Part shown: in pieces, positions 2,957-46,032 of the stretch
Numbering within the stretch: the first letter of the stretch is position 1
Layout of the letters: each line of letters starts with the position of its first letter
From: an uncultured Actinomycetota bacterium
GTDB lineage: Bacteria; Actinomycetota; Actinomycetes; Propionibacteriales; Nocardioidaceae
Reading direction: 5' to 3'
NCBI GenBank assembly: GCA_963712935.1
Contig: CAVQJX010000016.1
Coordinates: 14,350 to 78,349 of the forward strand
Length of the DNA stretch: 64,000 nucleotides
Notes under the pieces: model-generated
What the model was told of the DNA's origin: nothing
Database searches by the model: none
What the model saw: the letters and a program-made list of their open reading frames with translations, nothing else
Made by a program: the position numbers and the translations under genes

Positions 2957-4615
2957 CTAGCGACGGGCGCCAGGTCCACGCACGAATCGACCCGGCTGCG
3001 TGCCCGTGTGTGACCCGTCCCGCAGGACTGGTGCGCCGTTGACCAGGACGTGCATCACGCCGGTGGCGTACCTGTAGGGCTGCTGGGGAGTGGCGTGATC
3101 GGCAATCGACTCGGGCTCGAACGCCACGATGTCGGCGACATACCCGACCTTGACCAGGCCACGGTCCCGCAGGCCGAGGTTGGCCGCGGGAAGGCTCGTC
3201 ATGCGTCGGATTGCTTCGGGCAGGGACAGTACTTGCTCGTCTCGCACGAGGTGCCCCAGCACGCGGGCGAACGAACCAAAAGCCCGGGGATGGATGCCGC
3301 CGCGTTTCATCGCTACCTCGGAGGAGAGCGACTCCGCGTCTGAGCAGAAGCTGACCCAGGGCTGTTGCGCGACCAGGCGGACGTCGTCGCGCTCAATGTC
3401 GCAGAACAGGGCGAAGACATCGCCGCGATTACGCAGTGCGAGGTCCATGGCGATATCGGCCGGCACACTCTCGTACCGGCGGGCGAGGTCGGCGAGCGTG
3501 CAGCCTGCCCAATCCGCGAACTCCGGTTCGAGCGGACCGGAAACCAGGATGTTCTCGGGTCCGGCATCGAGGAACGGGTTCTCCCAGTGCGTACTCCTCA
3601 GATCGGCGCGAATCCGCTCTCGCGCCGATGGCTCGGCAAGACGTGCACGCAGCGCGTCCGGGCCGCCCGCATGCGCCCAAGGTGGAAAGCAGGTGGTGAG
3701 GGACGTTCCCGAGCATTCGTAGGGATAGACGTCCGCTGTGATCGCCAGGCCGTTGGCGCGGGCTTCTTTGATCAGATCGATCGCCGCAGGGAGCTTGTGC
3801 CAGTTGCGGCTACCTGCTGCCTTGAAGTGATAGATCTCTGCCCGCACCTGCGCGAGACGTGCGATGTCGATCAGCTCCCGCACCGCATCGAGCAGGCCGG
3901 AACCTTCGCTGCGTATGTGAGAGGCGTACATCCCGCCGTATGCGCCGGCGACGCTCGCGAGCGCGACGAGCTCTTCGGTTCGGTAGGAAGTCTCCGGTGG
4001 GTAGATCAGCGCCGACGCAACCCCGAGCGCGCCGTCGGTCATCTCGCGTTCGAGGAGACCGCACATGGCCCGGAGTTCATCCGGGCTCGCTGCGCGGTCC
4101 TCGAAGCCCACCTCGTGGACGCGCAACGTTCCCGCACCGACGAACGACGCGACGTTGGGGGTCACACCGCGCGACTCGAGCCACGTCAGGTACTCGCCGA
4201 GGGTGCGCCAGGTTACGGGATACCGGTAGCCGCCGACGGTGTCCGCGATCCCGTGGGCTTCCATCGCCACGCGCATCGACTCGTTGAGCGGTCCCATGGA
4301 GGTGCCCTCGCCCATCACCTCCAGGGTGACACCCTGCTGCACGTCGCTCATCGATCTGCCGTCCTCGATGAGGGTTTCCGGTGCCCAGCTCATCATGTTG
4401 ATGAAGCCCGGAGACACGACAAGGCCCCCGACGTCGATCTCGTCTTTCCCACCGTCGGCCACCCGTGGGGCAAGCGCAACGATCGTGTCGCCGGTGATCG
4501 CCACATCTCCGGTCCACGGCTGGTTGCCGCTCCCGTCGTGGATCGTCCCGCCGCGCAGCACGATGTCGTAAGCGGCCACGCGACAAGAGTGCCATTGCGA
4601 GCGGAGCGCAGACAT
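2957..4615 (-). CDS. N-acyl-D-amino-acid deacylase (D-aminoacylase) family amidohydrolase
   Basis: 552 aa. N-terminal signature YDIVLRGGTIHDGSGNQPWTGDVAITGDTIVAL...VVSPGFINMMSW and the length are typical of D-aminoacylases. Confidence 0.8.
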   Translation of the reverse strand: MSALRSQWHSCRVAAYDIVLRGGTIHDGSGNQPWTGDVAITGDTIVALAPRVADGGKDEIDVGGLVVSPGFINMMSWAPETLIEDGRSMSDVQQGVTLEVMGEGTSMGPLNESMRVAMEAHGIADTVGGYRYPVTWRTLGEYLTWLESRGVTPNVASFVGAGTLRVHEVGFEDRAASPDELRAMCGLLEREMTDGALGVASALIYPPETSYRTEELVALASVAGAYGGMYASHIRSEGSGLLDAVRELIDIARLAQVRAEIYHFKAAGSRNWHKLPAAIDLIKEARANGLAITADVYPYECSGTSLTTCFPPWAHAGGPDALRARLAEPSARERIRADLRSTHWENPFLDAGPENILVSGPLEPEFADWAGCTLADLARRYESVPADIAMDLALRNRGDVFALFCDIERDDVRLVAQQPWVSFCSDAESLSSEVAMKRGGIHPRAFGSFARVLGHLVRDEQVLSLPEAIRRMTSLPAANLGLRDRGLVKVGYVADIVAFEPESIADHATPQQPYRYATGVMHVLVNGAPVLRDGSHTGTQPGRFVRGPGARR

Positions 4616-4693
4616 GTCCTCGCGGACACAATCTTGGCCAGACGCCTTGTCGCTTGGAACAACGCGTCTCGCTTGACGTGGAACCAGATGTGC

Positions 4694-6301
4694 TCAGTTG
4701 TGCGGGCGGTGTTGTTCCAGCCGGAGCTGGAGCCACATCGACAGCCTGACGTCGGGATCCTCCAGGTCCAGCCCGAAGCGCTCCTGTGCCCGGCGCAGCC
4801 GGTAGCGCAGCGTGTTCGCGTGGACTTGAAGTCGCGTCGCTGCGGCGCCGACATCGCCCTGGCAGTCCAGCCAGACCTGCATCGAACGGGCATAGGTCGT
4901 GCCGTGTTCCCGGTCGTGGTCGGACATCTCCTGGATGCCGGGATGCCGCAGACGCGGGTCGGAGGCGAGCTCGCGCGCCACGCGGTCGAGCAGGATCCGT
5001 GAGTGGACGTCGGCAACGGTGGCCACCGCGGGGGCCCGATCGTCGCTCGCGGCAGCTCGCAGAACGGCGTCCGTTTCTGCCCTGAGTGCGGGAAGGTCCC
5101 GAACATCGCGGGTCACGGCACTGACCGCAGCCCGCACCGTCGAACCGCTCGCCTGCGTCAAGCTACGCAGTGCCCCGCCGGCAAGTCGGTGCGCAGCTTC
5201 GCCGGACCCGGGTACGAGCACGTAGACGCCACGGGTCGTCGTTGTCGTCACCGCTTCCGGGCGGTAGGCGAGAACGTATCGCGCCGCCGCCACGCCGAGG
5301 CGGGTGAGCAGAGGACCCTGCTGATCGGTGTCGTGGGACGCAAACGCGATCAGCGAGATCTCCGACCCGGCGGTCAGCCCGAGCTTCTCGTCGGCATCGT
5401 CGATCGGTCGCCCACCGGCCAGCACCGAGCGCAGGACCTCGCCCCGGAGGCGCTGCTCGCGCTCGGTGAGATCCTGGCCGCGCAACATGTGCATCGCTGC
5501 GATCCGGGCGGCTTCGAGCAGTGCCTGTTCACCGGCCGGATCGAGACCCCGCTCGTCCTCGATCGCCCAGATCGTCCCGAGCGGCATGTCGCCCGCACGG
5601 ATGGCCACCGCCGCTCGTGGGAACTCCTCCTCGAGCGCCGGAAAGCGAGACACTCCGGAGTCTCTGAGGACCTGCAGGTACTGAGCACGGTGATGCGGGT
5701 AGTCGGGCACTTGCCTGTCCAGAATTCCCCGCTCGCGCAGCGGATCGATGCGCTGGCCCTCGATCGAGGAGTAGGCGAGCACGTGCTGTTCGAGGTCCTC
5801 GATGGCGACCGATCCACCGATGGTCCCCCCCAGAGCGTTTGCGAGCACGAACAGTGCCTCGCCCCCGCTGGTCGTGAGCCCCGCGGACAGTCGTCGGGCT
5901 CCGAGCACGGACACCAGCAACCCGTCCAGGTGACGCCATGGCAGGTCGTCCGCGGTCTCCAGGATGGCCAAGTCGTGCAGCGAGGCCTCGGCGACCAGGG
6001 CCGAGGGATCGCCGCCGCGCGTCTTGATCACCGCCGCCACGTGGCCGTGCTCGGCGGCGTCCCGGACGATCACGGGAGCCTCCGAAGAGTCGGCCCGGGT
6101 CCCGACCAGCAGCAGCACCCGACCTTCCCCGTCCGGCATCGGGTCGGCAGGGTCATAGATCGAGGTCCCGGTGACTTCGAGGTCAAGGCCCGCCGGCGCC
6201 ACCAGTGCATGGAGCAGGTCGACACCCAAGGCGTCGAGGATTGTCCGGAGGGTCGCCGCCCCGGTGGTGGCGCCCTCATTGGTGTGATCGACCAATGTCA
6301 C
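4694..6301 (-). CDS. PucR family transcriptional regulator
   Basis: 535 aa. C-terminal PucR-type HTH (LQVHANTLRYRLRRAQERFGLDL). Divergent from the second aminoacylase/ABC operon. Confidence 0.8.
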   Translation of the reverse strand: MTLVDHTNEGATTGAATLRTILDALGVDLLHALVAPAGLDLEVTGTSIYDPADPMPDGEGRVLLLVGTRADSSEAPVIVRDAAEHGHVAAVIKTRGGDPSALVAEASLHDLAILETADDLPWRHLDGLLVSVLGARRLSAGLTTSGGEALFVLANALGGTIGGSVAIEDLEQHVLAYSSIEGQRIDPLRERGILDRQVPDYPHHRAQYLQVLRDSGVSRFPALEEEFPRAAVAIRAGDMPLGTIWAIEDERGLDPAGEQALLEAARIAAMHMLRGQDLTEREQRLRGEVLRSVLAGGRPIDDADEKLGLTAGSEISLIAFASHDTDQQGPLLTRLGVAAARYVLAYRPEAVTTTTTRGVYVLVPGSGEAAHRLAGGALRSLTQASGSTVRAAVSAVTRDVRDLPALRAETDAVLRAAASDDRAPAVATVADVHSRILLDRVARELASDPRLRHPGIQEMSDHDREHGTTYARSMQVWLDCQGDVGAAATRLQVHANTLRYRLRRAQERFGLDLEDPDVRLSMWLQLRLEQHRPHN

Positions 6302-20235: not shown

Positions 20236-21614
20236 TCAGTGCTGCCAACGGGTCGCGGCCGCGAGCGCTTCGTCGCTGACCCCATCGAACAGCTCGAGCT
20301 CGCTCTCGCGCAGCGCGATGACCGATGCCGACAAGGCGCCACCGAAGGCCGTGCGCAGCGTGTCGTCCTCGGCGAAGGCGTCGGTGGCCGCGCGCAGGTC
20401 CTGCGGCAGCCGGGCGATGCCGCGTTCGGTCAGGACCGCTTCGTCCAGGACGGCCGGGTCGACGTCGACAGGCTCGGGCAACGAAGCGCCGGTCGCCATA
20501 CCGTCCATGCCGGTGGCGAGCAGGCCGGCCAGCACGAGGTAGGGGTTGGCGTGCAGGTCGAAGCACTTCACCTCGAGGTTCGCCGCCCACGGGCTGCTGC
20601 CGGTCGAGCCGGTGACCATCCGCAGCGCCGCCTCACGGTTCTCCAGCCCCCAGCACGCGAACGTGCCCGCCCAGTGCGACGGCACCTGGCGCAGGTAGCT
20701 CACCGCACTCGGTGCGCCGACCGCCATCAGGGCCGGCAATGCTGCAGCACCCCGGCGCCGAAGGCCTCTCCATCGGCGGTCAGGCCGAACGGGACCGTCG
20801 CCGTCGGCCATCAGGTTCTTGCCGTGCGCGCCACAGGCTCAGGTGGACGTGGCCGCCGTTCCCGACGCCGGGGACGGCGACCTTGGGCGAGAACGACGTC
20901 CGCAGCCCGTAGAGGTCGCCCACGGCGCGAATGGTGGAGCGGACGAGCACGGAGGTGTCGGCCGCGTCGACCGGGGACCTCCGGCGCCACCGACAGCTCG
21001 AGCTGTCCTGGTGCGTACTCCGGGTGGAACTGTTCGACCGTCACCCCCTCGTCGGTCAACGCCGAGATGACGTCACGGGCGTAGTCGGACACCTCGACCA
21101 GCCGGTTCATGCCGTACCCCGGCCCACGCATCGCCGGGTGGAAGTCGTCCTCGGGCTCGTCGCTGACGACCCACTCGATCTCGAACGCCGCCTTGACGTC
21201 GATCGACTGCTCGCCGAGCCGGTCGACCAGGTCCTGCAGGAGCAGCCGGTTGCACTGCGCGTGCGGCGCGCCGGTCTGCTCGTACCGGTCGGCCGGCGCC
21301 CACGCCCAGCCGGGTGGCCCGGCCAGCGGAACCACGCGTCGGACGTCAGGGATGATGCGGAGATCGCCGACGGGCGCCCGACCGTCCGGGTCGGCGGCGA
21401 TCCAGTCATCGAACCGGAACCGGTCGAACGACGTCGAGATACCGACACCCCACGCTGCCGTATGGGGGAGACGTGCGAGCGGTACGCACTTGACCCGGGC
21501 GATCCCCGAGTTGTCGACGAAGGTGATGGCAACGGCGGCGACATCCTGCTCCCGCAACCGGGAGACGACTTCTTCCGCGGCTGCGGCGCGCGACTCGCGT
21601 TCGGCGACGTCCAC
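20236..21614 (-). pseudogene. glutamine synthetase family (GlnA-like gamma-glutamyl ligase) gene with about four frameshifts
   Basis: ORF 20811..21614 is an N-terminal GS beta-grasp plus FHPEYAPGQLELSVAP. A third frame then reads VDAADTSVLVRSTIRAVGDLYGLRTSFSPKVAVPGVGNGGHVHLSLW. ORF 20236..20811 follows (MADGDGP..PALMAVGAPSAVSYLRQVPSHWAG..NLEVKCFDLHANPYL). An internal compensating pair restores FGLTADGEAFGAGVLQH. Confidence 0.8.
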
Positions 21615-21644
21615 GCGTGCTCCTCTCTTCCGGCGAAACGAGCC

Positions 21645-21749
21645 ATGGACAAACCCCGTCGGGCGCCATCACACTACGCATCGTAAGGATTGTCCATCGT
21701 CGACACCACTGTCGGCTGTTTCGGGGCGGCCGGTGCCGCATGTCCATCG
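21645..21749. promoter_or_regulatory. three copies of a TGTCCAT(C/G)G motif in the divergent GS-like/permease intergenic region
   Basis: CCATGGACAA at 21645 (inverted orientation). TGTCCATCG at 21691 and at 21741. Confidence 0.3.
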
Positions 21750-30226: not shown

Positions 30227-31054
30227 ATGACACTCGTTCTGGCGGCGACGCCGATCGGCCGGATCGAGGACGCTCCGCCGCGGCTGGCGACGGAGCTCGC
30301 CTCCGCGGACGTGATCGCAGCCGAGGACACCCGTCGGCTGCGGCGGCTGCTGGGAGAGCTCGGGGTCGAGACTTCGGCGCGGGTGGTGTCGTACTTCGAG
30401 GGCAACGAGGTCGCTCGTACGTCGGGCCTGGTGGAGGCCCTGGTCGCCGGTGAACGCGTCGTGCTGGTGACCGATGCCGGTATGCCCAGCGTCTCCGACC
30501 CGGGCTACCGGCTCGTGTCAGCGGCGGTGGCTGCGGGCGTCGAGGTCACGGCGGTGCCGGGGCCGTCCGCGGTCCTGATGGCTCTCGCGGTCTCGGGCCT
30601 GCCGGTCGACCGGTTCTGCTTCGAGGGCTTCCTGCCGCGCAAGTCCGGTGAGCGGCGCCGACGGTTGGCCGAGCTGGCCGACGAGCCGCGCACGATGGTG
30701 TTCTTCGAGGCGCCGCATCGCACCGCCGAGTCGTTGCTGGCGATGGGGGAGGCGTTCGGGCCCGAGCGTGCGGTGGCGGTGTGTCGCGAGCTGACCAAGA
30801 CCTATGAGGAGGTACGCCGCGGCAGCCTTGCCGACGTCAGCGCCTGGGCAGCTGACGGAGTCCGGGGCGAGGTCACGATCGTCGTCGACGGTGCGCCGGC
30901 CATGCCTCCAGCCGAGCTCGACGCCGACCAGCTGCGCTCGCTCGTCGATGCTGCCGCGGCCGACGGGTTGTCCCGCAAGGACGCGGTGTCCCAGGTGGCG
31001 GCCCGGACCGGCATCCCCCGCAAGACCGTCTACGCCGCCGCCCACTCTCGTTGA
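30227..31054 (+). CDS. rsmI: 16S rRNA (cytidine1402-2'-O)-methyltransferase
   Basis: ATG at 30227. LVLAATPIGRIEDAPPRL..IAAEDTRR, DAGMPSVSDPG and FEAPHR motifs. Confidence 0.9.
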   Translation: MTLVLAATPIGRIEDAPPRLATELASADVIAAEDTRRLRRLLGELGVETSARVVSYFEGNEVARTSGLVEALVAGERVVLVTDAGMPSVSDPGYRLVSAAVAAGVEVTAVPGPSAVLMALAVSGLPVDRFCFEGFLPRKSGERRRRLAELADEPRTMVFFEAPHRTAESLLAMGEAFGPERAVAVCRELTKTYEEVRRGSLADVSAWAADGVRGEVTIVVDGAPAMPPAELDADQLRSLVDAAAADGLSRKDAVSQVAARTGIPRKTVYAAAHSR

Positions 31055-31140
31055 GCCGTGAGTTGTTGGGCTGTTGAGCCGTGAGTTGTGGTCCGTTGAG
31101 CCGTGAGTTGTGGCTCCTCGAGCCGTGGGTTTGGTACCGC
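31050..31140. repeat. 22-23 bp tandem direct repeat, three perfect 17-nt cores plus one degenerate copy
   Basis: GTTGAGCCGTGAGTTGT at 31050, 31073 and 31095. Degenerate TCGAGCCGTGGGTTTGG at 31118. The first copy contains the rsmI stop codon. Confidence 0.9.
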
Positions 31141-31181
31141 GCTAGCGTGAAATGCGAACGCGCGACCTCGAAGGGAGCCCC

Positions 31182-32054
31182 ATGGAGATCGGCCTGCACG
31201 TCTCGGACTTCACCTGGCCCGGCGGCCCGGACACGCTCGCCGACGACCTCACCCGGGTGGTGACGACGGCCGACGACCTCGGGTTCGCGCGGATCAGCGT
31301 GATGGATCACGTCTGGCAGATCGGTGTCAACGGGCCGCCCGAGGGGCCGATGCTCGAGGCGTACACCGCTCTGGGCTTCATCGCGGCCCGGACCTCCCGC
31401 GTACGGCTTCTCGCCTGGGTGACCGCCGTCGTCTACCGGGAGCCAGGCATGCTGGCCAAGCTCGTGAGCACGCTCGACGTGCTGTCGAAGGGCCGCGCCT
31501 GGCTCGGCGTCGGTGCCGCGTGGAACGAGGACGAAGCACGCGGCCTCGGGTTGCCCTTCCCACCGACCGCCGAGCGTTTCGAGCGGCTCGAAGAGGCCGT
31601 GCAGATCTGTCAGCAGATGTGGAGTGCTGACGACGGCCCGTATGCCGGCCGGCACTACCAGCTGACCCGGACGCTCAACTCGCCACAGCCGATCAGCAGG
31701 CCGCACCCACCGATCCTCATCGGCGGCGGTGGCGAGAAGAAGACGCTGCGCCTCGTCGCGCAGTACGCGCAGGCCTGCAACCTCTTCGACAGTCCCGAAC
31801 TGGCCCACAAGCTCGAGGTGCTGCGAGCCCACTGCGACGCGGTTGGCCGCGACTACGACGACATCGAGAAGACGGTGATGCTGCGGCTCGACCCCGGCGA
31901 GCACGGTGAGCACGTCGACACGCTGCTCGAGGACCTGCACCGGCTGTCCGAGCTCGGCGTCGCCGAGACTCACGGCAAGGTTCCCCATGTCTCCGACCTC
32001 AAGCGGCTGGAGATCCTCGGTGATCGGGTGATCCCGGTGGCCGCCGCCTTCTGA
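31182..32054 (+). CDS. LLM class F420-dependent oxidoreductase (Rv1855c-like)
   Basis: ATG at 31182 after GAAGGGAG. ISVMDHVWQIG, LDVLSKGRAWLGVGAAWNEDE and PPILIGGGGEKKTLRLVA are typical of luciferase-like monooxygenase family proteins. Confidence 0.8.
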   Translation: MEIGLHVSDFTWPGGPDTLADDLTRVVTTADDLGFARISVMDHVWQIGVNGPPEGPMLEAYTALGFIAARTSRVRLLAWVTAVVYREPGMLAKLVSTLDVLSKGRAWLGVGAAWNEDEARGLGLPFPPTAERFERLEEAVQICQQMWSADDGPYAGRHYQLTRTLNSPQPISRPHPPILIGGGGEKKTLRLVAQYAQACNLFDSPELAHKLEVLRAHCDAVGRDYDDIEKTVMLRLDPGEHGEHVDTLLEDLHRLSELGVAETHGKVPHVSDLKRLEILGDRVIPVAAAF

Positions 32055-33864
32055 GCTACCCGCACGTCGTCCGTGGGCCGGCGAAACCGGCTCGACGCGG
32101 CCCCTAGGATTGGGGCCATGCCCGACAGCCCCGCCAAGGCGTTCTACGTCACCACGCCGATCTACTACGTGACGGCCCCGCCCTCCATCGGCAACGCATA
32201 CACGACGGTCGCTGCCGACGTCCTGGCACGGTGGCACCGGCAGATGGGTGAGGACGTCGTCTTCCTGACGGGTACCGACGAGCACGGCCAGAAGGTCCTC
32301 GAGGCAGCCGAAGAACACGGTGTGACGCCGCAGGAGTGGGCCGACCGGCTCGTCGAGACCGAGTGGCAGCCTGTCCTTTCGGTGATCGACGCCAGCAACG
32401 ACGACTTCATCCGTACGACGGAGCCACGCCACACCGAGCGGGTGCAGGAGTTCTGGCAGGCCGTCTACGACGCGGGTGACGTCTACGAGGGCAGCTACGA
32501 AGGGCCGTACTGCATCTCGTGTGAGGAGTTCAAGCTGCCGTCCGAGCTGCTCGACGGCAACGAGGGCCAGAAGCTGTGCCCTATCCACGAGCGACCCGTC
32601 GAGACGCTGTCGGAGGTCAACTACTTCTTCGCCCTGAGCAAGTACGCCGATCGGCTGCTCGCGCTGTACGAGGACGAGCCCACGTTCGTGCAGCCCGACA
32701 GTGCGCGCAACGAGGTCATCTCGTTCGTGCGGCAGGGGCTGCAGGACCTGTCGATCTCGCGCTCGACCTTCGACTGGGGGATCCCGGTGCCGTGGGACGA
32801 GAAGCACGTCTTCTACGTGTGGATCGACGCGCTGCTCAACTACGCGACCGCGGCGGGCTTCGGGACCGACCCGGAGCGGTTCGCCCGCATCTGGCCGGCT
32901 GACGTGCAGCTCGTCGGCAAGGACATCCTGCGCTTCCACGCGGTCATCTGGCCGGCCATGCTGATGGCGGCCGGCGTCGACGTACCGCGGCGGGTCTTCG
33001 CGCACGGCTGGCTGCAGGTCGGCGGTCAGAAGATGAGCAAGTCCAAGGCGACGGCCATCCATCCGAGCGAGATCGTCGACACGTTCGGCTCGGACGCCTA
33101 CCGCTACTACTTCACGCGGACGATCTCCTTCGGCTCCGACGGCAGCTTCTCGTGGGAGCACATGAGCGCGGTCTACACGAGTGAGCTCGCGAACGGGCTG
33201 GGCAACCTCGCTTCGCGGGTCACCGCGATGGTGGGCAAGTACTTCGACGGGGTTCTGCCGGAGCAGGGTGCGCAGGGTCCCGCCGAACTGGCCCTGGCCG
33301 ACGCGCTTGCCGCAGCCGCCCGTACCGCCGACGACGCGATCGAGCGGGTGGCGATCCATGAAGCGGTGGGTGCGGTCGCCGACTTCGTGGGATTGGTCAA
33401 CGGCTACGTCACCGAGCAGGAGCCATGGAAGGTGGCCAAGGACGACAGCCCGGCCGGCCAACGGCGCCTGGCGACGATCCTGTACGCCGCTGCCGAGTCG
33501 CTGCGCGGCGTGGCGGTGCTGCATCACGCGGTGATGCCGCGCACCGCGGCCGCATTGTGGGCGGCCCTCGGCGCTGACGCCATCGGACCGCTGGCCGATC
33601 AACGCATCGCCGAGGTCGGGACGTGGGGCCAGCTGCCTGCAGGAGCGATGTTGACCAAGGGCGCGTCGCTGTTCCCCCGGATCGACACGGTGGAGGCAGG
33701 GCCTGGGGGCGCCGCTCGATGAGCGGCCCGCTGCGGGCGCGCGCAGGTGACGACGAGACGGGCCGTCGGGACGTGACCCGGCCACCGCTGCCAGATCCGC
33801 TGCCGAGTCCGGTCGTCGACAACCACTGTCATCTCGACATCGCGGATGGCGACGGGTGGTTGGA
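31379..33864 (+). repeat. tandem duplication, copy A (LLM 3' part + metG + first 146 nt of tatD)
   Basis: Aligned directly by eye with 33865..36348. The offset is 2486 nt, then 2484 nt after two 1-nt gaps. Confidence 0.95.
32118..33722 (+). CDS. metG: methionine--tRNA ligase, copy 1
   Basis: ATG at 32118. YVTTPIYYVTAPPSIGNAYT (HIGH-region equivalent), KMSKS motif QKMSKSKATAI, CxxC knuckle. 534 aa. Confidence 0.95.
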   Translation: MPDSPAKAFYVTTPIYYVTAPPSIGNAYTTVAADVLARWHRQMGEDVVFLTGTDEHGQKVLEAAEEHGVTPQEWADRLVETEWQPVLSVIDASNDDFIRTTEPRHTERVQEFWQAVYDAGDVYEGSYEGPYCISCEEFKLPSELLDGNEGQKLCPIHERPVETLSEVNYFFALSKYADRLLALYEDEPTFVQPDSARNEVISFVRQGLQDLSISRSTFDWGIPVPWDEKHVFYVWIDALLNYATAAGFGTDPERFARIWPADVQLVGKDILRFHAVIWPAMLMAAGVDVPRRVFAHGWLQVGGQKMSKSKATAIHPSEIVDTFGSDAYRYYFTRTISFGSDGSFSWEHMSAVYTSELANGLGNLASRVTAMVGKYFDGVLPEQGAQGPAELALADALAAAARTADDAIERVAIHEAVGAVADFVGLVNGYVTEQEPWKVAKDDSPAGQRRLATILYAAAESLRGVAVLHHAVMPRTAAALWAALGADAIGPLADQRIAEVGTWGQLPAGAMLTKGASLFPRIDTVEAGPGGAAR

Positions 33865-33907
33865 CATCGCGGCCCGGACTTCCCGCGTACGGCTTCTCGC
33901 TGGGTGA
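33719..33907 (+). pseudogene. duplication-junction chimera: tatD codons 1-49 fused in frame to the LLM oxidoreductase interior, then truncated
   Basis: MSGPLRARAGDDETGRRDVTRPPLPDPLPSPVVDNHCHLDIADGDGWL(D) followed by IAARTSRVRLLA from LLM. A 1-nt gap relative to copy A (GCCTGG -> GCTGG) creates TGA at 33905. Confidence 0.85.
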
Positions 33908-33916
33908 CGCCGTCGT

Positions 33917-34538
33917 CTACCGGGAGCCAGGCATGCTGGCCAAGCTCGTGAGCACGCTCGACGTGCTGTCGAAGGGCCGCGCCTGGCTCGGCGTCGGTGC
34001 CGCGTGGAACGAGGACGAAGCACGCGGCCTCGGGTTGCCCTTCCCACCGACCGCCGAGCGTTTCGAGCGGCTCGAAGAGGCCGTGCAGATCTGTCAGCAG
34101 ATGTGGAGTGCTGACGACGGCCCGTATGCCGGCCGGCACTACCAGCTGACCCGGACGCTCAACTCGCCACAGCCGATCAGCAGGCCGCACCCACCGATCC
34201 TCATCGGCGGCGGTGGCGAGAAGAAGACGCTGCGCCTCGTCGCGCAGTACGCGCAGGCCTGCAACCTCTTCGACAGTCCCGAACTGGCCCACAAGCTCGA
34301 GGTGCTGCGAGCCCACTGCGACGCGGTTGGCCGCGACTACGACGACATCGAGAAGACGGTGATGCTGCGGCTCGACCCCGGCGAGCACGGTGAGCACGTC
34401 GACACGCTGCTCGAGGACCTGCACCGGCTCTCCGAGCTCGGCGTCGCCGAGACTCACGGCAAGGTTCCCCATGTCTCCGACCTCAAGCGGCTGGAGATCC
34501 TCGGTGATCGGGTGATCCCGGTGGCCGCCGCCTTCTGA
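33917..34538 (+). pseudogene. 3' fragment of LLM F420-dependent oxidoreductase (duplicate, lacks its own start and N-terminal 80 codons)
   Basis: From VVYREPGMLAKL to the stop, the protein is identical to 31182..32054. I found one silent nt difference. It is out of frame with the junction ORF because of two 1-nt gaps. Confidence 0.85.
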
Positions 34539-34601
34539 GCCACCCGCACGTCGTTCGTGGGCCGGCGAAACCGGCTCGACGCGGCCCCTAGGATTGGGGC
34601 C

Positions 34602-36206
34602 ATGCCCGACAGCCCCGCCAAGGCGTTCTACGTCACCACGCCTATCTACTACGTGACGGCCCCGCCCTCCATCGGGAACGCGTACACGACCGTCGCTGCC
34701 GACGTCCTGGCACGTTGGCACCGGCAGATGGGTGAGGACGTCGTCTTCCTGACGGGTACGGACGAGCACGGCCAGAAGGTCCTGGAGGCAGCTGAAGAAC
34801 ACGGTGTGACGCCCCAGGAGTGGGCCGACCGGCTCGTCGAGACCGAGTGGCAGCCCGTCCTTTCGGTGATCGACGCCAGCAACGACGACTTCATCCGTAC
34901 GACGGAGCCACGCCACACCGAGCGGGTGCAGGAGTTCTGGCAGGCCGTCTACGACGCGGGCGACGTCTACGAGGGCAGCTACGAAGGGCCGTACTGCATC
35001 TCGTGCGAGGAGTTCAAGCTGCCGTCTGAGCTGCTCGACGGCGACGAGGGCCAGAAGTTGTGCCCCATCCACGAGCGACCCGTCGAGACGCTGTCGGAGG
35101 TCAATTACTTCTTCGCCCTGAGCAAGTACGCCGACCGGCTGCTCGCGCTGTACGAGGACGAGCCCACGTTCGTGCAACCCGAGAGCGCACGCAACGAGGT
35201 CATCTCGTTCGTGCGGCAGGGGCTGCAGGACCTGTCCATCTCGCGTTCGACCTTCGACTGGGGGATCCCGGTGCCGTGGGACGAGAAGCACGTCTTCTAC
35301 GTGTGGATCGACGCGCTGCTCAACTACGCGACCGCGGCCGGCTTCGGGACCGACCCGGAGCGGTTCGCCCGCATCTGGCCGGCTGACGTGCAGCTCGTCG
35401 GCAAGGACATCCTGCGTTTCCACGCCGTCATCTGGCCCGCGATGTTGATGGCGGCCGGCGTCGACGTACCGCGCCGGGTCTTCGCCCACGGCTGGCTGCA
35501 GGTCGGCGGTCAGAAGATGAGCAAGTCCAAGGCGACGGCCATCCACCCGAGCGAGATCGTCGACACGTTCGGCTCGGACGCCTACCGCTACTACTTCACG
35601 CGCACGATCTCCTTCGGCTCCGACGGCAGCTTCTCGTGGGAGCACATGAGCGCGGTCTACACGAGTGAGCTCGCGAACGGCCTGGGCAACCTCGCCTCGC
35701 GGGTTACCGCGATGGTCGGCAAGTACTTCGACGGGGTCCTGCCCGAGCCGGGCGAGCTGGGTCCCGCCGAGCTGGCCTTGGCCGACGGGCTTGCGGCAGC
35801 CGCCCGTACGGCCGACGACGCGATCGAGCGGGTCGCGATCCACGAAGCGGTGGGTGCGGTGGCCGACTTCGTGGGACTGGTCAACGGCTACGTCACCGAG
35901 CAGGAGCCATGGAAGGTGGCCAAGGACGACAGCCCGGCCGGCCAACGGCGCCTGGCGACGATCCTGTACGCCGCTGCGGAGTCGCTGCGTGGGGTGGCGG
36001 TGCTGCATCACGCGGTGATGCCGCGCACCGCGGCCGCATTGTGGGCGGCCCTCGGCGCCGACGCCATCGGGCCGCTGGCCGACCAACGCATCGCCACGGT
36101 CGGGACGTGGGGCCAACTGCCCGCGGGAGCCGTGTTGACCAAGGGCGCGTCCTTGTTCCCCCGGATCGACACGGTGGAGGCAGGGACCGAGAGCGCTGCT
36201 CGATGA
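34602..36206 (+). CDS. metG: methionine--tRNA ligase, copy 2
   Basis: Same length and motifs as copy 1. 11 aa differences read from the two translations, most of them in the C-terminal third. Confidence 0.95.
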   Translation: MPDSPAKAFYVTTPIYYVTAPPSIGNAYTTVAADVLARWHRQMGEDVVFLTGTDEHGQKVLEAAEEHGVTPQEWADRLVETEWQPVLSVIDASNDDFIRTTEPRHTERVQEFWQAVYDAGDVYEGSYEGPYCISCEEFKLPSELLDGDEGQKLCPIHERPVETLSEVNYFFALSKYADRLLALYEDEPTFVQPESARNEVISFVRQGLQDLSISRSTFDWGIPVPWDEKHVFYVWIDALLNYATAAGFGTDPERFARIWPADVQLVGKDILRFHAVIWPAMLMAAGVDVPRRVFAHGWLQVGGQKMSKSKATAIHPSEIVDTFGSDAYRYYFTRTISFGSDGSFSWEHMSAVYTSELANGLGNLASRVTAMVGKYFDGVLPEPGELGPAELALADGLAAAARTADDAIERVAIHEAVGAVADFVGLVNGYVTEQEPWKVAKDDSPAGQRRLATILYAAAESLRGVAVLHHAVMPRTAAALWAALGADAIGPLADQRIATVGTWGQLPAGAVLTKGASLFPRIDTVEAGTESAAR

Positions 36207-37135
36207 GTGGCCCCCTGCGGGCGCGTGCAGGTGAAGACGAGACGGGCCGTCGGGACGTGACCCGGCCACCGCTACCGGATCCACTGCCGAGTCCGGTCGT
36301 CGACAACCACTGTCATCTCGACATCGCGGATGGCGACGGGTGGTTGGAGCCGGCGGAGGCGCTCCGCTGGTCGGCCGAGGTCGGCGTCCCGCGCATCGTG
36401 CAGATTGGCTGCGACCTTCCCGGAGCCCGCTGGGCCGTCGAGACGGCGACGGCGTACGACGCGATCGTGGCCGGAGTGGCGATCCACCCGAACGAAGCGC
36501 CTCGGCTCGAGGCTGACGGCAGCCTCGACGCCGCGCTCGTGGAGATCGAGGAGCTGGTCACGTCGAGTCCGCGGGTGCGCGCCGTGGGGGAGACCGGCCT
36601 GGACTACTACCGGACCGGGCCCGAGGGTGTCGATGCGCAGCGGAGGTCGTTCGCGGCGCACATCGCGCTGGCGCACCGCCACGGGAGGGCGCTGGTCATC
36701 CACGACCGCGATGCGCACGACGACGTGCTGGCCATGCTCGACGAGCACGGGGTGCCGGAGCGGACCGTGCTGCACTGCTTCTCCGGTGACGAGGTGTTCG
36801 CGCGCGCCTGCCTGGATCGCGGCGCGTACCTGTCCTTCGCGGGGACGGTGACGTTCAAGAACGCGGCGCCGCTCCGGCGGGCGTTGGCGGTGGCTCCGTT
36901 GGACCGGATCCTGGTCGAGACCGACGCGCCGTACCTGACGCCGGTGCCCTTCCGCGGCCGGCCCAACGCGTCGTACCTGGTGCCCCACACGGTGCGCGCG
37001 ATGGCGGAGGTGCGGCAGGTGTCGCTCGAAGCGATGTGTACGGCGATCGACGCCAACACCGACGCCGCGTTCGGGGGGTCGTGGGGGACTGCCCAAGGCA
37101 AACCTGGAGCCAACAAGGGAAGTTTGCCTAGTTAA
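36203..37135 (+). CDS. tatD: TatD family metal-dependent DNase/hydrolase
   Basis: ATGA overlap with the metG stop. VVDNHCHLD, AVGETGLDYY, HCFSG and ETDAPYLTP motifs. Confidence 0.9.
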   Translation: MSGPLRARAGEDETGRRDVTRPPLPDPLPSPVVDNHCHLDIADGDGWLEPAEALRWSAEVGVPRIVQIGCDLPGARWAVETATAYDAIVAGVAIHPNEAPRLEADGSLDAALVEIEELVTSSPRVRAVGETGLDYYRTGPEGVDAQRRSFAAHIALAHRHGRALVIHDRDAHDDVLAMLDEHGVPERTVLHCFSGDEVFARACLDRGAYLSFAGTVTFKNAAPLRRALAVAPLDRILVETDAPYLTPVPFRGRPNASYLVPHTVRAMAEVRQVSLEAMCTAIDANTDAAFGGSWGTAQGKPGANKGSLPS

Positions 37136-37165
37136 CCATCCATATGGCTTGTTCACTAGGCAAAC
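37122..37165 (+). terminator. 11-bp perfect stem hairpin overlapping the tatD stop
   Basis: GTTTGCCTAGT-n22-ACTAGGCAAAC in an unusually AT-rich patch. The loop contains the palindrome CCATATGG. No U-tract follows. Confidence 0.45.
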
Positions 37166-37399
37166 GCACGGCGAGGGATGGGCAGCGCGGCCGGGTGGGA
37201 GACCCGGCGGGTAGGGCCGGGGCCGGGTCGTGATCAGTTCGTGATCTCGTGAGATGGGTCACGTCGCCCCGCCTGAGCGATGCTCGTCCGTTTGGGTCCG
37301 CCAGCGATGTTTGGCATGGTCGAACGCTGTTGGCCGGAAGCAGGAATGCCTACAAAACACCTTCAAACGGGCATTATCCTCCCGCATCCCCTGCGGTAG

Positions 37400-38548
<1,149 letters not shown>

Positions 38549-38605
38549 CCAACCCTCGAGCGGCCACGGGTAGCGAGGGCGGTCAGCTCCGGCCCACGCC
38601 CTACA

Positions 38606-39493
38606 GTGACCGCTGTGAGCTCCGCATCATCGGCGTCCGCCGGTCCGAAACTTCTCGGGCCGGCGGACGTGCGTGCGTTGGCGCACCGGTACGGCGTCCG
38701 GCCCACCAAGCAGCGCGGCCAGAACTTCGTCATCGACGCCAACACGGTGCGCCGCGTCGTACGCGCTGCCGGGCTCCAGTCCGACGACGTCGTGCTCGAG
38801 GTCGGACCGGGTCTCGGCTCGCTCACGCTGGCCTTGCTCGAGGTGGTGCCCCACGTCATCGCCGTCGAGGTCGACCCGGTGCTGGCGGCCGCGCTGCCCG
38901 AGACGATCTCCACCTACGCTCCGGCCGACGCCGATCGGGTGACCGTGGTCCAGGCGGATGCGCTGCGCATCACCGACCTTCCCGGAGCACCTCCCACCGC
39001 CCTCGTCGCCAACCTGCCCTACAACGTGGCCGTGCCGGTGTTGCTGCACCTGCTCGCCACGTTCCCGACCATCGAACGGGTGCTGGTCATGGTCCAGCTC
39101 GAGGTTGCGGAGCGGCTCGCGGCCGGCCCGGGCTCGAAGGTCTACGGCGTCCCCAGCGTCAAGGCGGCGTGGTATGCCGACGTGCGCACGGTCGGCACCG
39201 TCGGCCGCACGGTGTTCTGGCCCGCGCCCAACGTCGATTCCGGTCTGGTGGCGCTCGTGCGCCGCGACCCGCCGAACAGCGTTGCCAGCCGCGACCAGGT
39301 CTTCGCCGTCGTCGATGCCGCGTTCGCGCAGCGACGCAAGACGCTGCGGGCTGCGCTGGCGTCCTACGCCGGTTCCCCAGCCCGGGCTGAGGTGGCGCTG
39401 CGAGCCGCCGGAGTCGATCCATCGGCTCGCGGCGAACGACTCACCGTCCAGGACTTCACCCGCCTGGCCGATGCCTTCGTGGCAGCGCCGTAA
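38606..39493 (+). CDS. rsmA: 16S rRNA (adenine1518/1519-N6)-dimethyltransferase
   Basis: [13 protein letters not shown] motif [12 protein letters not shown], and NLPYNVA. Position after rpfB matches Rv1009-Rv1010. Confidence 0.9.
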
Positions 39494-39513
39494 TCTCGTG
39501 TCGTGAAGCCCGC

Positions 39514-40433
39514 ATGAACCTCGCCCACGCCATGAGCGCAGCCACCGTCCGCGCGCCCGCCAAGATCAACCTCGGTCTGAGCGTTGGGGCGCCGGGCGAC
39601 GACGGATACCACCCGGTCGCGACGGTCTACCAGGCGATCTCGCTGTATGACGAGATCAAGGCCCGGCCCGCACCCGACGGCACGTTCACGGTGTCCGTCA
39701 CCGGGGAGGGACACGACGACGTTCCCCTCGACCCGTCCAACCTCGCTGTCCGGGCCGCGGTCCGGCTGGCGCAGGCGTTCGATGTCGAGATGGGGGCGGC
39801 GCTCAGCATTCACAAGGCGATCGCCGTCGCTGGTGGGCTGGCCGGCGGCAGCACGGACGCGGCCGGGGCGCTCGTCGCCTGTGACGCCTTGTGGGGGACC
39901 CGGGCGTCCCATGACGACCTGGGGCGGCTCGCGGCCGAGCTCGGCGCTGACGTGCCGTTCTGCCTGACAGGCGGGATGGCCGTCGGCACCGGTCGTGGCG
40001 AGAACATCTCGCCGGTGCTGGCACGGGGCAGGTACGAGTGGGTGCTCGCGTACGCCGACGGCAGCCTGGCGACGCCGGAGGTCTACGCCGAGCTGGATCG
40101 CGTTCGCGGCAGCAGCGGCATCCCCGAACCGGCCGTGCCGGAGGAGCTGATGGCGGCGCTGCGGACCGGCGACCCGTACGCCGTCGGGCATGCCCTCCAC
40201 AACGACCTCGAGGCGCCGGCGCTGCGGTTGCGACCTGCCCTGCGACGCACACTCGACCTCGGTGAGGAGTACGGCGCGCTCGGGTCGCTGGTGTCCGGTT
40301 CCGGGCCGACCTGCTTGTTCCTGGCCGCCGACGAGGACCACGCCATCGACCTGGCCGTCGCCCTGTCGAGCTCCGGGCTGTGCCGCTCGGTGCAACGGGC
40401 CAGCGGTCCGGTCCCAGGGGCGCGACTCGTCAC

Positions 40434-44594: not shown

Positions 44595-44980
44595 CCGTCG
44601 CGTTGCACCATGTCCAGGTCAGCTGCCCGGCCGGCGGTGAGGCCGACGTACGCCGCTTCTACGGTGAGCTGCTCGGGCTCACGGAGGTGGCGAAGCCGGC
44701 CGTGCTGGCGGCCCGTGGGGGCGCGTGGTTCCGCGGGCCGGGGTACGAGCTTCACGTGGGCGTGGAAGAGGGGTTCACTCCGGCCCGCAAGGCTCATCCG
44801 GCGTTCGTGGTGAGCGATGCGGACCAGGTGGCCGGCATGCTCCAGGCGGCGGGCATCGAGGTCGGCTGGGACGACAACTTCCCGGGCTATCGCAGATTCC
44901 ACACCGCTGATCTGCACGGCAACCGGGTGGAGATCCTCGAAGCGTTGCCCCCGGGAGCACCGCAGCCTGAGGCTGAATAG
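44591..44980 (+). CDS. VOC (glyoxalase/bleomycin-resistance/dioxygenase) family protein
   Basis: 129 aa. ATGA overlap with the GNAT stop. HHVQVSCP...FYGELLGL...HPAF...GNRVEI pattern. Confidence 0.7.
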   Translation: MTVALHHVQVSCPAGGEADVRRFYGELLGLTEVAKPAVLAARGGAWFRGPGYELHVGVEEGFTPARKAHPAFVVSDADQVAGMLQAAGIEVGWDDNFPGYRRFHTADLHGNRVEILEALPPGAPQPEAE

Positions 44981-44989
44981 AGTCACCGC

Positions 44990-46032
44990 ATGACCGACCA
45001 CGTCTCCACCGACACCGCTGCCCACACCCGGGCCGACTTCATCGCCGGGCTGCCCAAGGCCGAGCTCCACGTGCACCACGTCGGCTCGGCATCGCCGCGG
45101 ATCGTGGCGGAGCTGGCCGGACGGCACGAAGACACCCCGGTGCCTCGCGATCCCGAGCTGGTCGCGGACTACTTCACGTTCACCGACTTCGCGCATTTCG
45201 TCGAGGTCTACCTCTCGGTCGTCGACCTCGTGCGCACACCCGAGGACATCAGGACCCTCACGTACGAGATCGCCCGCGACATGACGACGCAGTCGATCCG
45301 CTATGCCGAGCTGACCTGCTCGCCGCTACACGTCCGTCATCCGCGGCATCGCCCCCGAGGCGTACTGCGAAGCCATCGAGGATGCGCGGGTGGCTGCCGA
45401 GCGGGACTTCGGGATCGTGCTGCGCTGGTGCTTCGATATCCCGGGTGAGTCCGGCGTTCCAGCGGCCGACGAGACGATCCGTGTCGCGACCGAGCTACGT
45501 CCCGGAGGGACTGGTCTCGTTCGGCCTCGGAGGCCCCGAGATCGGTGTGCCGCGCCCGCAGTTCAAACCGCACTTCGACGCAGCGCGCGCCGCGGGACTG
45601 CGTTCGGTCCCGCATGCCGGTGAGACCACCGGACCGCAGACCATCTGGGACGCGTTGCAGGTGCTCGGTGCCGAGCGGATCGGTCACGGCACGTCCGCGA
45701 CCCAGGACCCCGCCCTGTTGGCCCACCTGGCCGAGCATCAGATCCCGTTGGAGGTGTGCCCGACGTCGAACATCGCCACCCGGGCCGTCGCGTCCTTGGA
45801 CGACCACCCGATCAAACAGATGTACGAGGCCGGTGTCACGGTCACGATCAACTCCGACGATCCGCCGATGTTCGGCACGACCCTCAACCAGGAGTACGGC
45901 GTTGCGGCCCGGCTTCTCGGCCTCGGCGAGTCCGGCCTCAAGGCCTTGGCGCAGAACGCCGTCGACGTGTCGTTCGCCGACGACGACGTGAAGAAGCGGT
46001 TGACGGAGGAGATCCGCGCCTACTCCGCCTAG
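44990..46032 (+). pseudogene. add: adenosine deaminase with two +1 frameshifts
   Basis: Frame 1: LPKAELHVHHVGS...IRYAELTCSP. Frame 2 (from about 45326): YTSVIRGIAPEAYCEAIEDARVAAERDFGIVLRWCFDIPGESG...ELRP. Frame 3 (from about 45504): EGLVSFGLGGPEIG...SVPHAGE...ERIGHG...LEVCPTSN...TINSDDPPMFG. Confidence 0.85.

Follow-up and report, generated by a model that had tools for sequence, protein, structure and literature searches.

Results

The tandem repeat that places two metG genes on one contig of an uncultured Nocardioidaceae genome (GCA_963712935.1) is, in all likelihood, made up of two strain haplotypes of a single-copy locus that were concatenated during metagenome assembly, i.e., a false heterotype tandem duplication, as judged by comparing sequences within this genome and with other assemblies. 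Because it is most likely an assembly artefact, it should not be read as gene-duplication biology.

Local alignment within the window (the whole 64,000-nucleotide stretch that was analyzed, from contig CAVQJX010000016.1) delimits a blunt head-to-tail repeat on the + strand, with copy 1 at 31379-33864 (2486 nt) and copy 2 at 33865-36348 (2484 nt). Copy 1 holds the 3' two-thirds of a full-length luciferase-like monooxygenase gene (LLM, 31152-32054; Pfam Bac_luciferase, E = 5e-40), metG allele c1 (32118-33722; 534 aa from the ATG, in an open reading frame that opens at GTG 32073; Pfam tRNA-synt_1g, E = 3e-101), and 146 nt from the 5' end of tatD (33719-33864, in frame from the ATG at 33719). Copy 2 holds an LLM fragment, metG allele c2 (34602-36206; 534 aa, likewise with a Pfam match), and the beginning of the complete tatD gene (36203-37135; 310 aa; Pfam TatD_DNase). 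The copies abut at 33864|33865 with neither spacer nor microhomology between them (the junction reads ...GGTGGTTGGA|CATCGCGGCC...), and the absence of microhomology led us to reject a microhomology-mediated duplication. The join sets tatD codon 49 against the interior of LLM and preserves the frame, giving an in-frame TatD(1-49)::LLM reading. Immediately downstream of the junction, a 43-nt stretch (33865-33907) shows three changes found in this assembly only, namely a substitution (33880 T) and two 1-nt gaps; at the three private sites copy 1 and two contigs from other assemblies of the same species (L193 and L194, see below) all carry C. These changes look like poor consensus at the join; NHEJ-type mutagenesis was rejected as their cause, since it would require a real join.

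Identity between the copies is strongly mosaic. After the initial 31379-31423 segment, which differs from copy 2 by one substitution and two 1-nt gaps, the LLM part at 31424-32056 has a sole difference (at 31946) in 633 nt. The adjoining block at 32057-33799, which spans the intergenic stretch, the whole of metG and the initial 81 nt of tatD, has 82 differences in 1743 nt (4.7%), and the last 65 nt of copy 1 (33800-33864), within the tatD fragment, have none, although this identical end is marginal when set against the 4.7% rate (P = 0.04). The two metG alleles differ by 73 substitutions, distributed 10/6/57 over codon positions 1/2/3, and their products by 11 amino acids, 9 of which lie after residue 397. 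All 7 substitutions between the tatD fragment and the full gene, found in its first 81 nt, fall at third codon positions. Comparing the LLM block with the metG block by Fisher's exact test gives p = 1.9e-10, and the longest identical run between the copies is 522 nt, compared with a maximum of 391 nt in 20,000 permutations. A two-breakpoint maximum chi-square scan selected 33189-33808 (the 3' end of metG, 7.4% divergent) and not the LLM/metG boundary, and its value was reached in 3 of 500 permutations; cleaner statistics come from the Fisher and longest-run tests. The block heterogeneity is far beyond chance. A genuine tandem duplication predicts uniform divergence and edge genes that decay as pseudogenes; what we find is 1 difference in 633 nt beside 82 in 1743 nt and tatD changes confined to third positions.

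At the level of selection, the metG alleles give dS = 0.173 and dN/dS = 0.058, with relaxation in neither copy. The dS value is close to the 0.20-0.22 measured against the nearest species (G007), dN/dS is below the value between orthologues, and the distance between c1 and c2 is smaller than that of either allele to G007; the LLM block at 31424-32056, nearly identical between the copies, differs from G007 by 5.7%. Sequencing noise was rejected as the origin of the diverged copy on the strength of its third-position bias and intact reading frame. A self-resistance paralogue was rejected as well, since the two proteins are 98% identical and the divergence is allele-level. The counts that a preliminary description had made by eye hold up almost entirely in the computed alignment: one substitution in about 600 nt in the LLM segment, 7 in the first 81 nt and none in the last 65 nt of the tatD fragment, C-terminal clustering of the 11 MetRS differences, and about 15 substitutions in the first 480 nt of metG, except that the single amino-acid change assigned to that stretch (N163D, nt 32559) lies just outside it. 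Its arguments that simple duplication followed by drift cannot produce such a block pattern and that the diverged segment evolved under purifying selection are upheld by the non-uniform divergence and by the dN/dS value, respectively.

The same locus is single-copy in other genomes. In L193, a contig of GCA_049589115.1, and in L194, a contig of GCA_049285195.1, both assemblies of the same species, rsmI-LLM-metG-tatD-rpfB is present once, and both contigs are 99.8-99.9% identical to the upstream flank, copy 2 and the downstream flank (copy 2 plus the downstream flank: 99.81% to L193, 99.88% to L194). Over the metG block, c2 differs from L193 and L194 at 1-3 positions and c1 at 81-83. Copy 2 and both flanks match the resident haplotype that is single-copy elsewhere. 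In a tree including each metG copy, as the preliminary description had proposed, copy 2 clusters with L193 and L194 at 100/100, copy 1 is their sister at 98/98, and G007 falls outside. Tree, dN/dS and third-position bias all characterize the copies as alleles of co-existing lineages rather than as paralogues that diverged in place. Exact-protein look-up found the full TatD protein encoded on three other public contigs and no match among public contigs for either MetRS protein (ATG-start form); a scan of metagenome contigs with MetRS gave no match above 90% amino-acid identity. The two-copy arrangement was not found among genus relatives, nor was the 33864|33865 junction seen in the other records retrieved. 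It should be noted that a single-copy state elsewhere is not decisive on its own, because recombination within the identical LLM block could reduce a real duplication to one copy and so restore the very copy-2-type locus that the other assemblies have.

Self-alignment of the whole genome (3.48 Mb, 35 contigs, with the window's own contig denoted C16) shows that the metG repeat is one of seven blunt head-to-tail repeats of 2-5.6 kb and 93.4-97.9% identity, the others lying on C3 (5.6 kb), C15 (4.3 kb), C10 (3.9 kb), C26 (3.6 kb), C18 (2.06 kb, groEL) and C33 (2.0 kb); the loci affected include groEL, aconitase and the rpsF-ssb-rpsR-rplI region. The six repeats other than metG are located at C3 51105-62335, C15 71182-79810, C10 11085-19494, C26 3945-11108, C18 56566-60675 and C33 134656-138693. 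The high-GC third-codon phase accounts for 65-85% of the substitutions in all seven and for 119 of the 183 in the edge 400 nt with truncated genes (p = 3e-18); since the bias is retained there, the truncated fragments evolved as parts of working genes. We checked three of the seven repeats (C16, C15 and C3) against conspecific sequence, locating the loci other than metG via exact-protein look-ups, and in GCA_049589115.1 the C15 locus (99.93% identical to copy 2 plus flank) and the C3 locus are likewise present once. Haplotype redundancy is also left uncollapsed outside the repeats, at a similar 93-98% identity: C5 ends in 6.4 kb of sequence (96.1% identity) with which C16 begins, in tandem orientation and unmerged; C30 and C12 overlap in the same end-to-start manner; and part of C28 recurs in alternative form as C8 (28 kb, 93-97% identity). 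Patchy similarity like that of the metG repeat is seen in the C5/C16 and C8/C28 overlaps as well, and these contig-end overlaps and the alternative contig are precursor states of such repeats.

The window carries signs of imperfect consensus, too. Two genes, one for adenosine deaminase and one GS-like, are both broken up across three reading frames while keeping the order of their conserved blocks; such multiple frameshifts suggest a long-read consensus. All genus-level relatives are metagenome-assembled genomes (MAGs), many of them from one soil long-read project; the present genome is likely a MAG as well, and its source, assembler and read type are inferred.

Discussion

We propose that two strains of a single Nocardioidaceae species were present in the sample, X (with metG c1) and Y (with metG c2), each of which would carry LLM-metG-tatD once. 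The assembler would have tracked haplotype X to 33864 and then haplotype Y from the equivalent of 31379, and because of this switch from X to Y the 2.5-kb haplotype overlap would have been written twice instead of being merged or placed on separate contigs. Copy 1 is then probably the end of the strain-X haplotype, and we infer that no single DNA molecule carried both copies. The mosaic would be a property of the strains, identical in LLM and ~5% apart in a 1.75-kb metG segment, where one lineage of a population that recombines would have acquired a diverged but functional allele by homologous recombination. Counting against an artefact, unrelated sequence (tatD to LLM) is joined without an N gap.

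The repeat could instead be a real and young tandem duplication whose copies hold different alleles, formed either as a fresh LLM'-metG-tatD' duplication in which the metG segment of copy 1 was then replaced homologously by DNA from a ~5% diverged strain, or between the DNA of two strains through one homologous join and one illegitimate join. A recent repeat would account for the near-identical LLM block, the low dN/dS fits an imported orthologous allele, copy 2 and its flanks represent the resident haplotype with copy 1 as the odd allele, and the private changes after the junction could reflect error-prone repair at a real breakpoint. However, the same coincidence would be needed at seven loci of one genome, groEL, aconitase and rpsF-ssb-rpsR-rplI among them; the three repeats tested are all missing from a conspecific assembly; strain overlaps of equal divergence lie unmerged in the same assembly; and the 633-nt near-identical block, with its 522-nt exact run, would destabilize the repeat. 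We consider a young duplication unlikely. Extended to all seven repeats, the argument would make one soil Nocardioidaceae strain merodiploid at seven loci (metG, groEL and aconitase among them), each with a hetero-allelic tandem segment in which the DNA of a ~5% diverged co-occurring strain was integrated beside the resident allele, through one homologous and one blunt illegitimate join, instead of replacing it. If true, inter-strain gene flow in actinobacteria would have an outcome not described so far, but we regard the scenario, taken with the integration route it entails, as highly improbable.

An old tandem duplication, in which selection kept both MetRS genes and recent gene conversion homogenized the LLM fragment as well as the 65 nt next to the junction, would also yield block-wise identity through conversion tracts, and c1 and c2 are indeed nearer to each other than to G007. 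Such conversion presupposes long co-residence of the two copies, yet relatives and conspecifics are single-copy, no genus relative has two copies, and copy 2 groups with the single-copy alleles. A dS of 0.17 would put its age near the species split without any relaxation of constraint (dN/dS is below that of orthologues), the dead tatD fragment changed at third positions only, and six further repeats would be left unexplained. Moreover, because copy 2 is essentially identical to the single-copy genes of the other strains, which are without the repeat, the c1/c2 split predates those strains. An old duplication is barely credible on this evidence. Among the three options that the preliminary description had listed, a chimeric assembly of two strains is thus favored (by the seven repeats, the unmerged overlaps and the single-copy copy-2 allele elsewhere) and gene conversion in an old duplication disfavored, and replacement of metG by recombination with a diverged strain is retained as a probable event, at a single-copy locus of one of the two strains and not in a duplicated genome. 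That the variant positions might be polymorphisms of a single-copy locus, which it had raised with reads in mind, is what the other assemblies indirectly indicate.

Concatenation of strain haplotypes has precedent: long-read metagenome assemblers have been documented to concatenate subpopulation-specific variants and to create false duplications (Trigodet et al., bioRxiv 10.1101/2025.04.22.649783, section 8). As in those cases, we see one contig with what are probably two subpopulations' variants of a locus in series, long direct repeats that probably exist in the assembly only, frame-breaking consensus indels, and errors that recur within one assembly. There are differences, in that Trigodet et al. 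define an error by read clipping, whereas the metG case is recognized from assembled sequence; their cartoon case concatenates the variable parts only, whereas the metG repeat unit includes 678 nt common to both strains; and they benchmarked PacBio HiFi, whereas the number of frameshifts in the window points to noisier reads. Heterotype false duplications are also documented in genome assemblies (Ko et al. 2022, Genome Biol 23:205, PMC9516828), where, as here, two alleles diverged above the genome level are kept as apparent paralogues on one sequence and inflate gene counts; those concern haplotypes of one individual in diploid vertebrates, often with a gap between the copies, rather than co-occurring bacterial strains joined gap-free.

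The repeat does resemble genuine bacterial tandem duplications and amplifications with RecA-independent blunt or microhomology joins, being head-to-tail with a novel junction inside genes and without homology at the join. New bacterial tandem duplications are, however, identical at birth and unstable. The metG repeat departs from them in its 4.7% difference in one block, in the signature of purifying selection even in dead fragments, and in a pattern that occurs at seven loci and is missing from the conspecific assembly at the three loci tested.

Read literally, the window would point to an additional methionyl-tRNA synthetase that selection has maintained, and to gene conversion or the capture of an allele within a duplication, with a bearing on aminoacyl-tRNA synthetase paralogy and inhibitor resistance. 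The evidence points instead, with high probability, to a recurrent assembly error, one that inflates copy number in a MAG (metG, groEL, aconitase, dxr and others) and makes spurious fusion reading frames. This serves as a warning, as the assembly serves as a species genome in the GTDB-based set searched: haplotype duplications should be purged before copy-number or paralogue analyses.

If the repeat is a false duplication, the biology that remains is a recombination mosaic of co-occurring strains at a single-copy metG locus, which is ordinary recombination patchiness with nothing unusual about it. Like the mosaics that homologous recombination creates between conspecific strains, with imports a few kilobases long, it consists of a 1.75-kb block of ~5%, mainly synonymous, divergence flanked by identical sequence. 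Another mosaic block of the upstream haplotype is a diverged patch upstream of LLM (30676-31094, + strand), which contains 17 of the 21 upstream differences from L193.

Architecture and Divergence of the metG Repeat

In the alignment, the window carries a blunt head-to-tail repeat made up of copy 1 (31379-33864) and copy 2 (33865-36348). Each unit combines a complete metG (534 aa counted from the ATG) with parts of its two neighbours: the 3′ two-thirds of the gene for a luciferase-like monooxygenase (LLM; full gene 31152-32054) and the initial 146 nt of tatD (full gene 36203-37135). At the junction, GGTTGGA is followed directly by CATCGCGG, with neither spacer nor microhomology at 33864/33865 in the aligned sequence. 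Across the join (33719-33910, forward strand), tatD codons 1-49 and LLM share one reading frame (..DGDGWLDIAARTSRVRLLA..), which is then disrupted by two 1-nt gaps that are absent from the other copy and from other assemblies. Should an annotation list a TatD::LLM fusion or a 230-aa ORF for an LLM fragment (33846-34538), either would probably be spurious.

Divergence between the copies is strongly non-uniform. The first 45 nt contain one substitution and two 1-nt gaps, the LLM block differs at 1 site in 633 nt, the block running from just past the LLM stop to nucleotide 81 of tatD has 82 differences in 1743 nt, and the final 65 nt are identical. Chance is excluded as the source of this heterogeneity (LLM versus metG block difference density, Fisher's test p = 1.9e-10; longest identical run 522 nt, compared with a maximum of 391 in 20,000 permutations), the identical 65-nt end being statistically marginal only (P = 0.04). 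The alignment thus bears out the preliminary description, in which one substitution in about 600 nt of LLM, a diverged metG and 65 identical nt at the junction had been counted by eye. The metG copies differ by 73 substitutions (codon positions 10/6/57) and their MetRS products by 11 amino acids, which cluster in the C-terminal third (9/11) as had been noted; divergence climbs toward the metG 3′ end, paralleling between-species divergence there.

By the Nei-Gojobori method, dS between the metG copies is 0.173 and dN/dS is 0.058, in agreement with the earlier view that the synonymous excess reflects purifying selection on the diverged segment. Since dS between either copy and the nearest species (G007) is 0.20-0.22 (dN/dS 0.08-0.13), the silent-site distance of the two metG genes is almost species-level; identity to G007 amounts to 93.2-93.5% over the metG block of either copy and to 94.3% over the LLM block. 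Constraint is relaxed in neither metG copy, and the truncated tatD of copy 1 differs from the full tatD at 7 positions, all of them third codon positions.

metG in Related Genomes

Nearly all relatives examined show one metG, and two full-length copies were found in none of them; a few, mostly fragmented genomes gave no full-length match. Contigs of two conspecific assemblies, GCA_049589115.1 and GCA_049285195.1, have the order rsmI-LLM-metG-tatD-rpfB with one metG each. Copy 2 and its downstream sequence are 99.81% and 99.88% identical to these contigs, respectively, with the upstream flank also matching, and in the metG block the two contigs show 1-3 differences from copy 2 and 81-83 from copy 1. 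The substitution and two 1-nt gaps directly after the junction are in neither contig and are private to the window's assembly. In a maximum-likelihood metG tree, an analysis proposed in the preliminary description, copy 2 clusters with the two conspecific single-copy genes at 100/100 support, with copy 1 as the sister of this group (98/98) and G007 outside.

Upstream of LLM, 21 differences separate the window from the GCA_049589115.1 contig, and 17 of them are concentrated at 30676-31094, which includes the rsmI 3′ end; LLM downstream of this patch shows 0-1 differences. The exact TatD protein is also encoded on three other public contigs, among them the two conspecific ones. A 4.1-kb metagenome contig (ENA ERZ25039498 contig_126371), 99.6% identical to window 36152-40245, begins 51 nt upstream of tatD, within a copy-2-type metG 3′ end, and may be another unmerged fragment of the same population.

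Repeats and Strain Redundancy across the Assembly

Self-alignment of the whole genome (35 contigs, 3.48 Mb) yielded seven blunt head-to-tail repeats of 2.0-5.6 kb and 93.4-97.9% identity: C3:51105-62335 (5.6 kb), C15:71182-79810 (4.3 kb, aconitase), C10:11085-19494 (3.9 kb, with a 695-nt insertion in the second copy), C26:3945-11108 (3.6 kb), the metG repeat on C16, the window's own contig (2.5 kb), C18:56566-60675 (2.06 kb, groEL) and C33:134656-138693 (2.0 kb; on its translation alone, it appears to carry dxr and a gene for an rseP-like protease). In all seven, 65-85% of substitutions are in third-codon phase, as are 119/183 in the edge 400 nt with cut genes. The aconitase and C3 repeats are single-copy in GCA_049589115.1 (the former 99.93% identical to copy 2 plus flank), and the C10 repeat is single-copy in a more distant assembly. 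The two groEL copies (1183-2805 and 3238-4860 of the C18 locus) encode identical 541-aa proteins, although 49 nucleotide differences separate the 2055-nt units.

The end of C5 (C5:18506-24913) overlaps the start of C16 (C16:2-6435) over 6.4 kb at 96.1% identity in tandem orientation, so that plain concatenation of C5 and C16 would create an eighth repeat of the same kind. The end of C30 likewise overlaps the start of C12 in tandem orientation (contig-end overlaps, 94-99.8% identity), and C8 (28 kb) represents an alternative form of C28:78342-106460 (93-97% identity). The unmerged overlaps are similarly patchy, with 370-512-nt identical runs within 3-6% diverged sequence. The overlaps and the C8/C28 pair, diverged to the same degree as the repeats, together show two strains co-assembled in the bin.

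Origin of the Repeat

The most economical reading, which we consider highly probable, is that the repeat is an assembly artefact in which two strain haplotypes were written in series. The assembler would have tracked haplotype X (metG allele c1) up to 33864 and then switched to haplotype Y (allele c2) at the equivalent of 31379, the 2.5-kb overlap thus being output twice. The mosaic identity would be a property of the strains, whose LLM sequences are identical and whose 1.75-kb metG segments differ by ∼5%. Such a mosaic would be the ordinary footprint left in natural populations when homologous recombination brings in a functional, diverged allele, and the diverged patch at 30676-31094 can be read as another such block. 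Documented errors of long-read metagenome assemblers include concatenated subpopulation-specific variants, unsupported indels and false duplications (bioRxiv 10.1101/2025.04.22.649783, section 8), and heterotype false duplications have been described in general (PMC9516828). The window repeat, with its gap-free join of unrelated sequence (tatD to LLM), would belong to this class of error.

A real, young, hetero-allelic tandem duplication seems unlikely: collapse via the identical LLM block would recreate the single-copy state seen in other assemblies, but this explanation must hold at seven loci simultaneously, and none of the three repeats checked against a conspecific assembly is duplicated there. 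We give hardly any weight to a duplication that arose in place long ago and was later evened out by gene conversion, against which stand a dS near the between-species level, the lack of relaxed constraint in either metG, and the exclusively third-position changes in the copy 1 tatD piece, a dead fragment were the duplication real. The two versions instead appear to have evolved inside working single-copy loci, as these patterns suggest.

Probable Consensus Errors in the Window

The adenosine deaminase gene (44977-46032, forward strand) matches positions 1-98, 99-156 and 151-329 of the Pfam A_deaminase profile in three frames, and a glutamine-synthetase-like gene (20236-21668, reverse strand) occupies at least three frames (Gln-synt_C positions 3-106, 106-160 and 186-333); in both, the conserved blocks stay in order across the split frames. 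Frame-split genes with ordered blocks are typical of indel-rich long-read consensus. The adenosine deaminase frame breaks are likely consensus indel errors, and the glutamine-synthetase-like gene would carry the same type of damage. Because all genus relatives are metagenome-assembled genomes (many from a single long-read soil project), the window's genome is almost certainly one as well.
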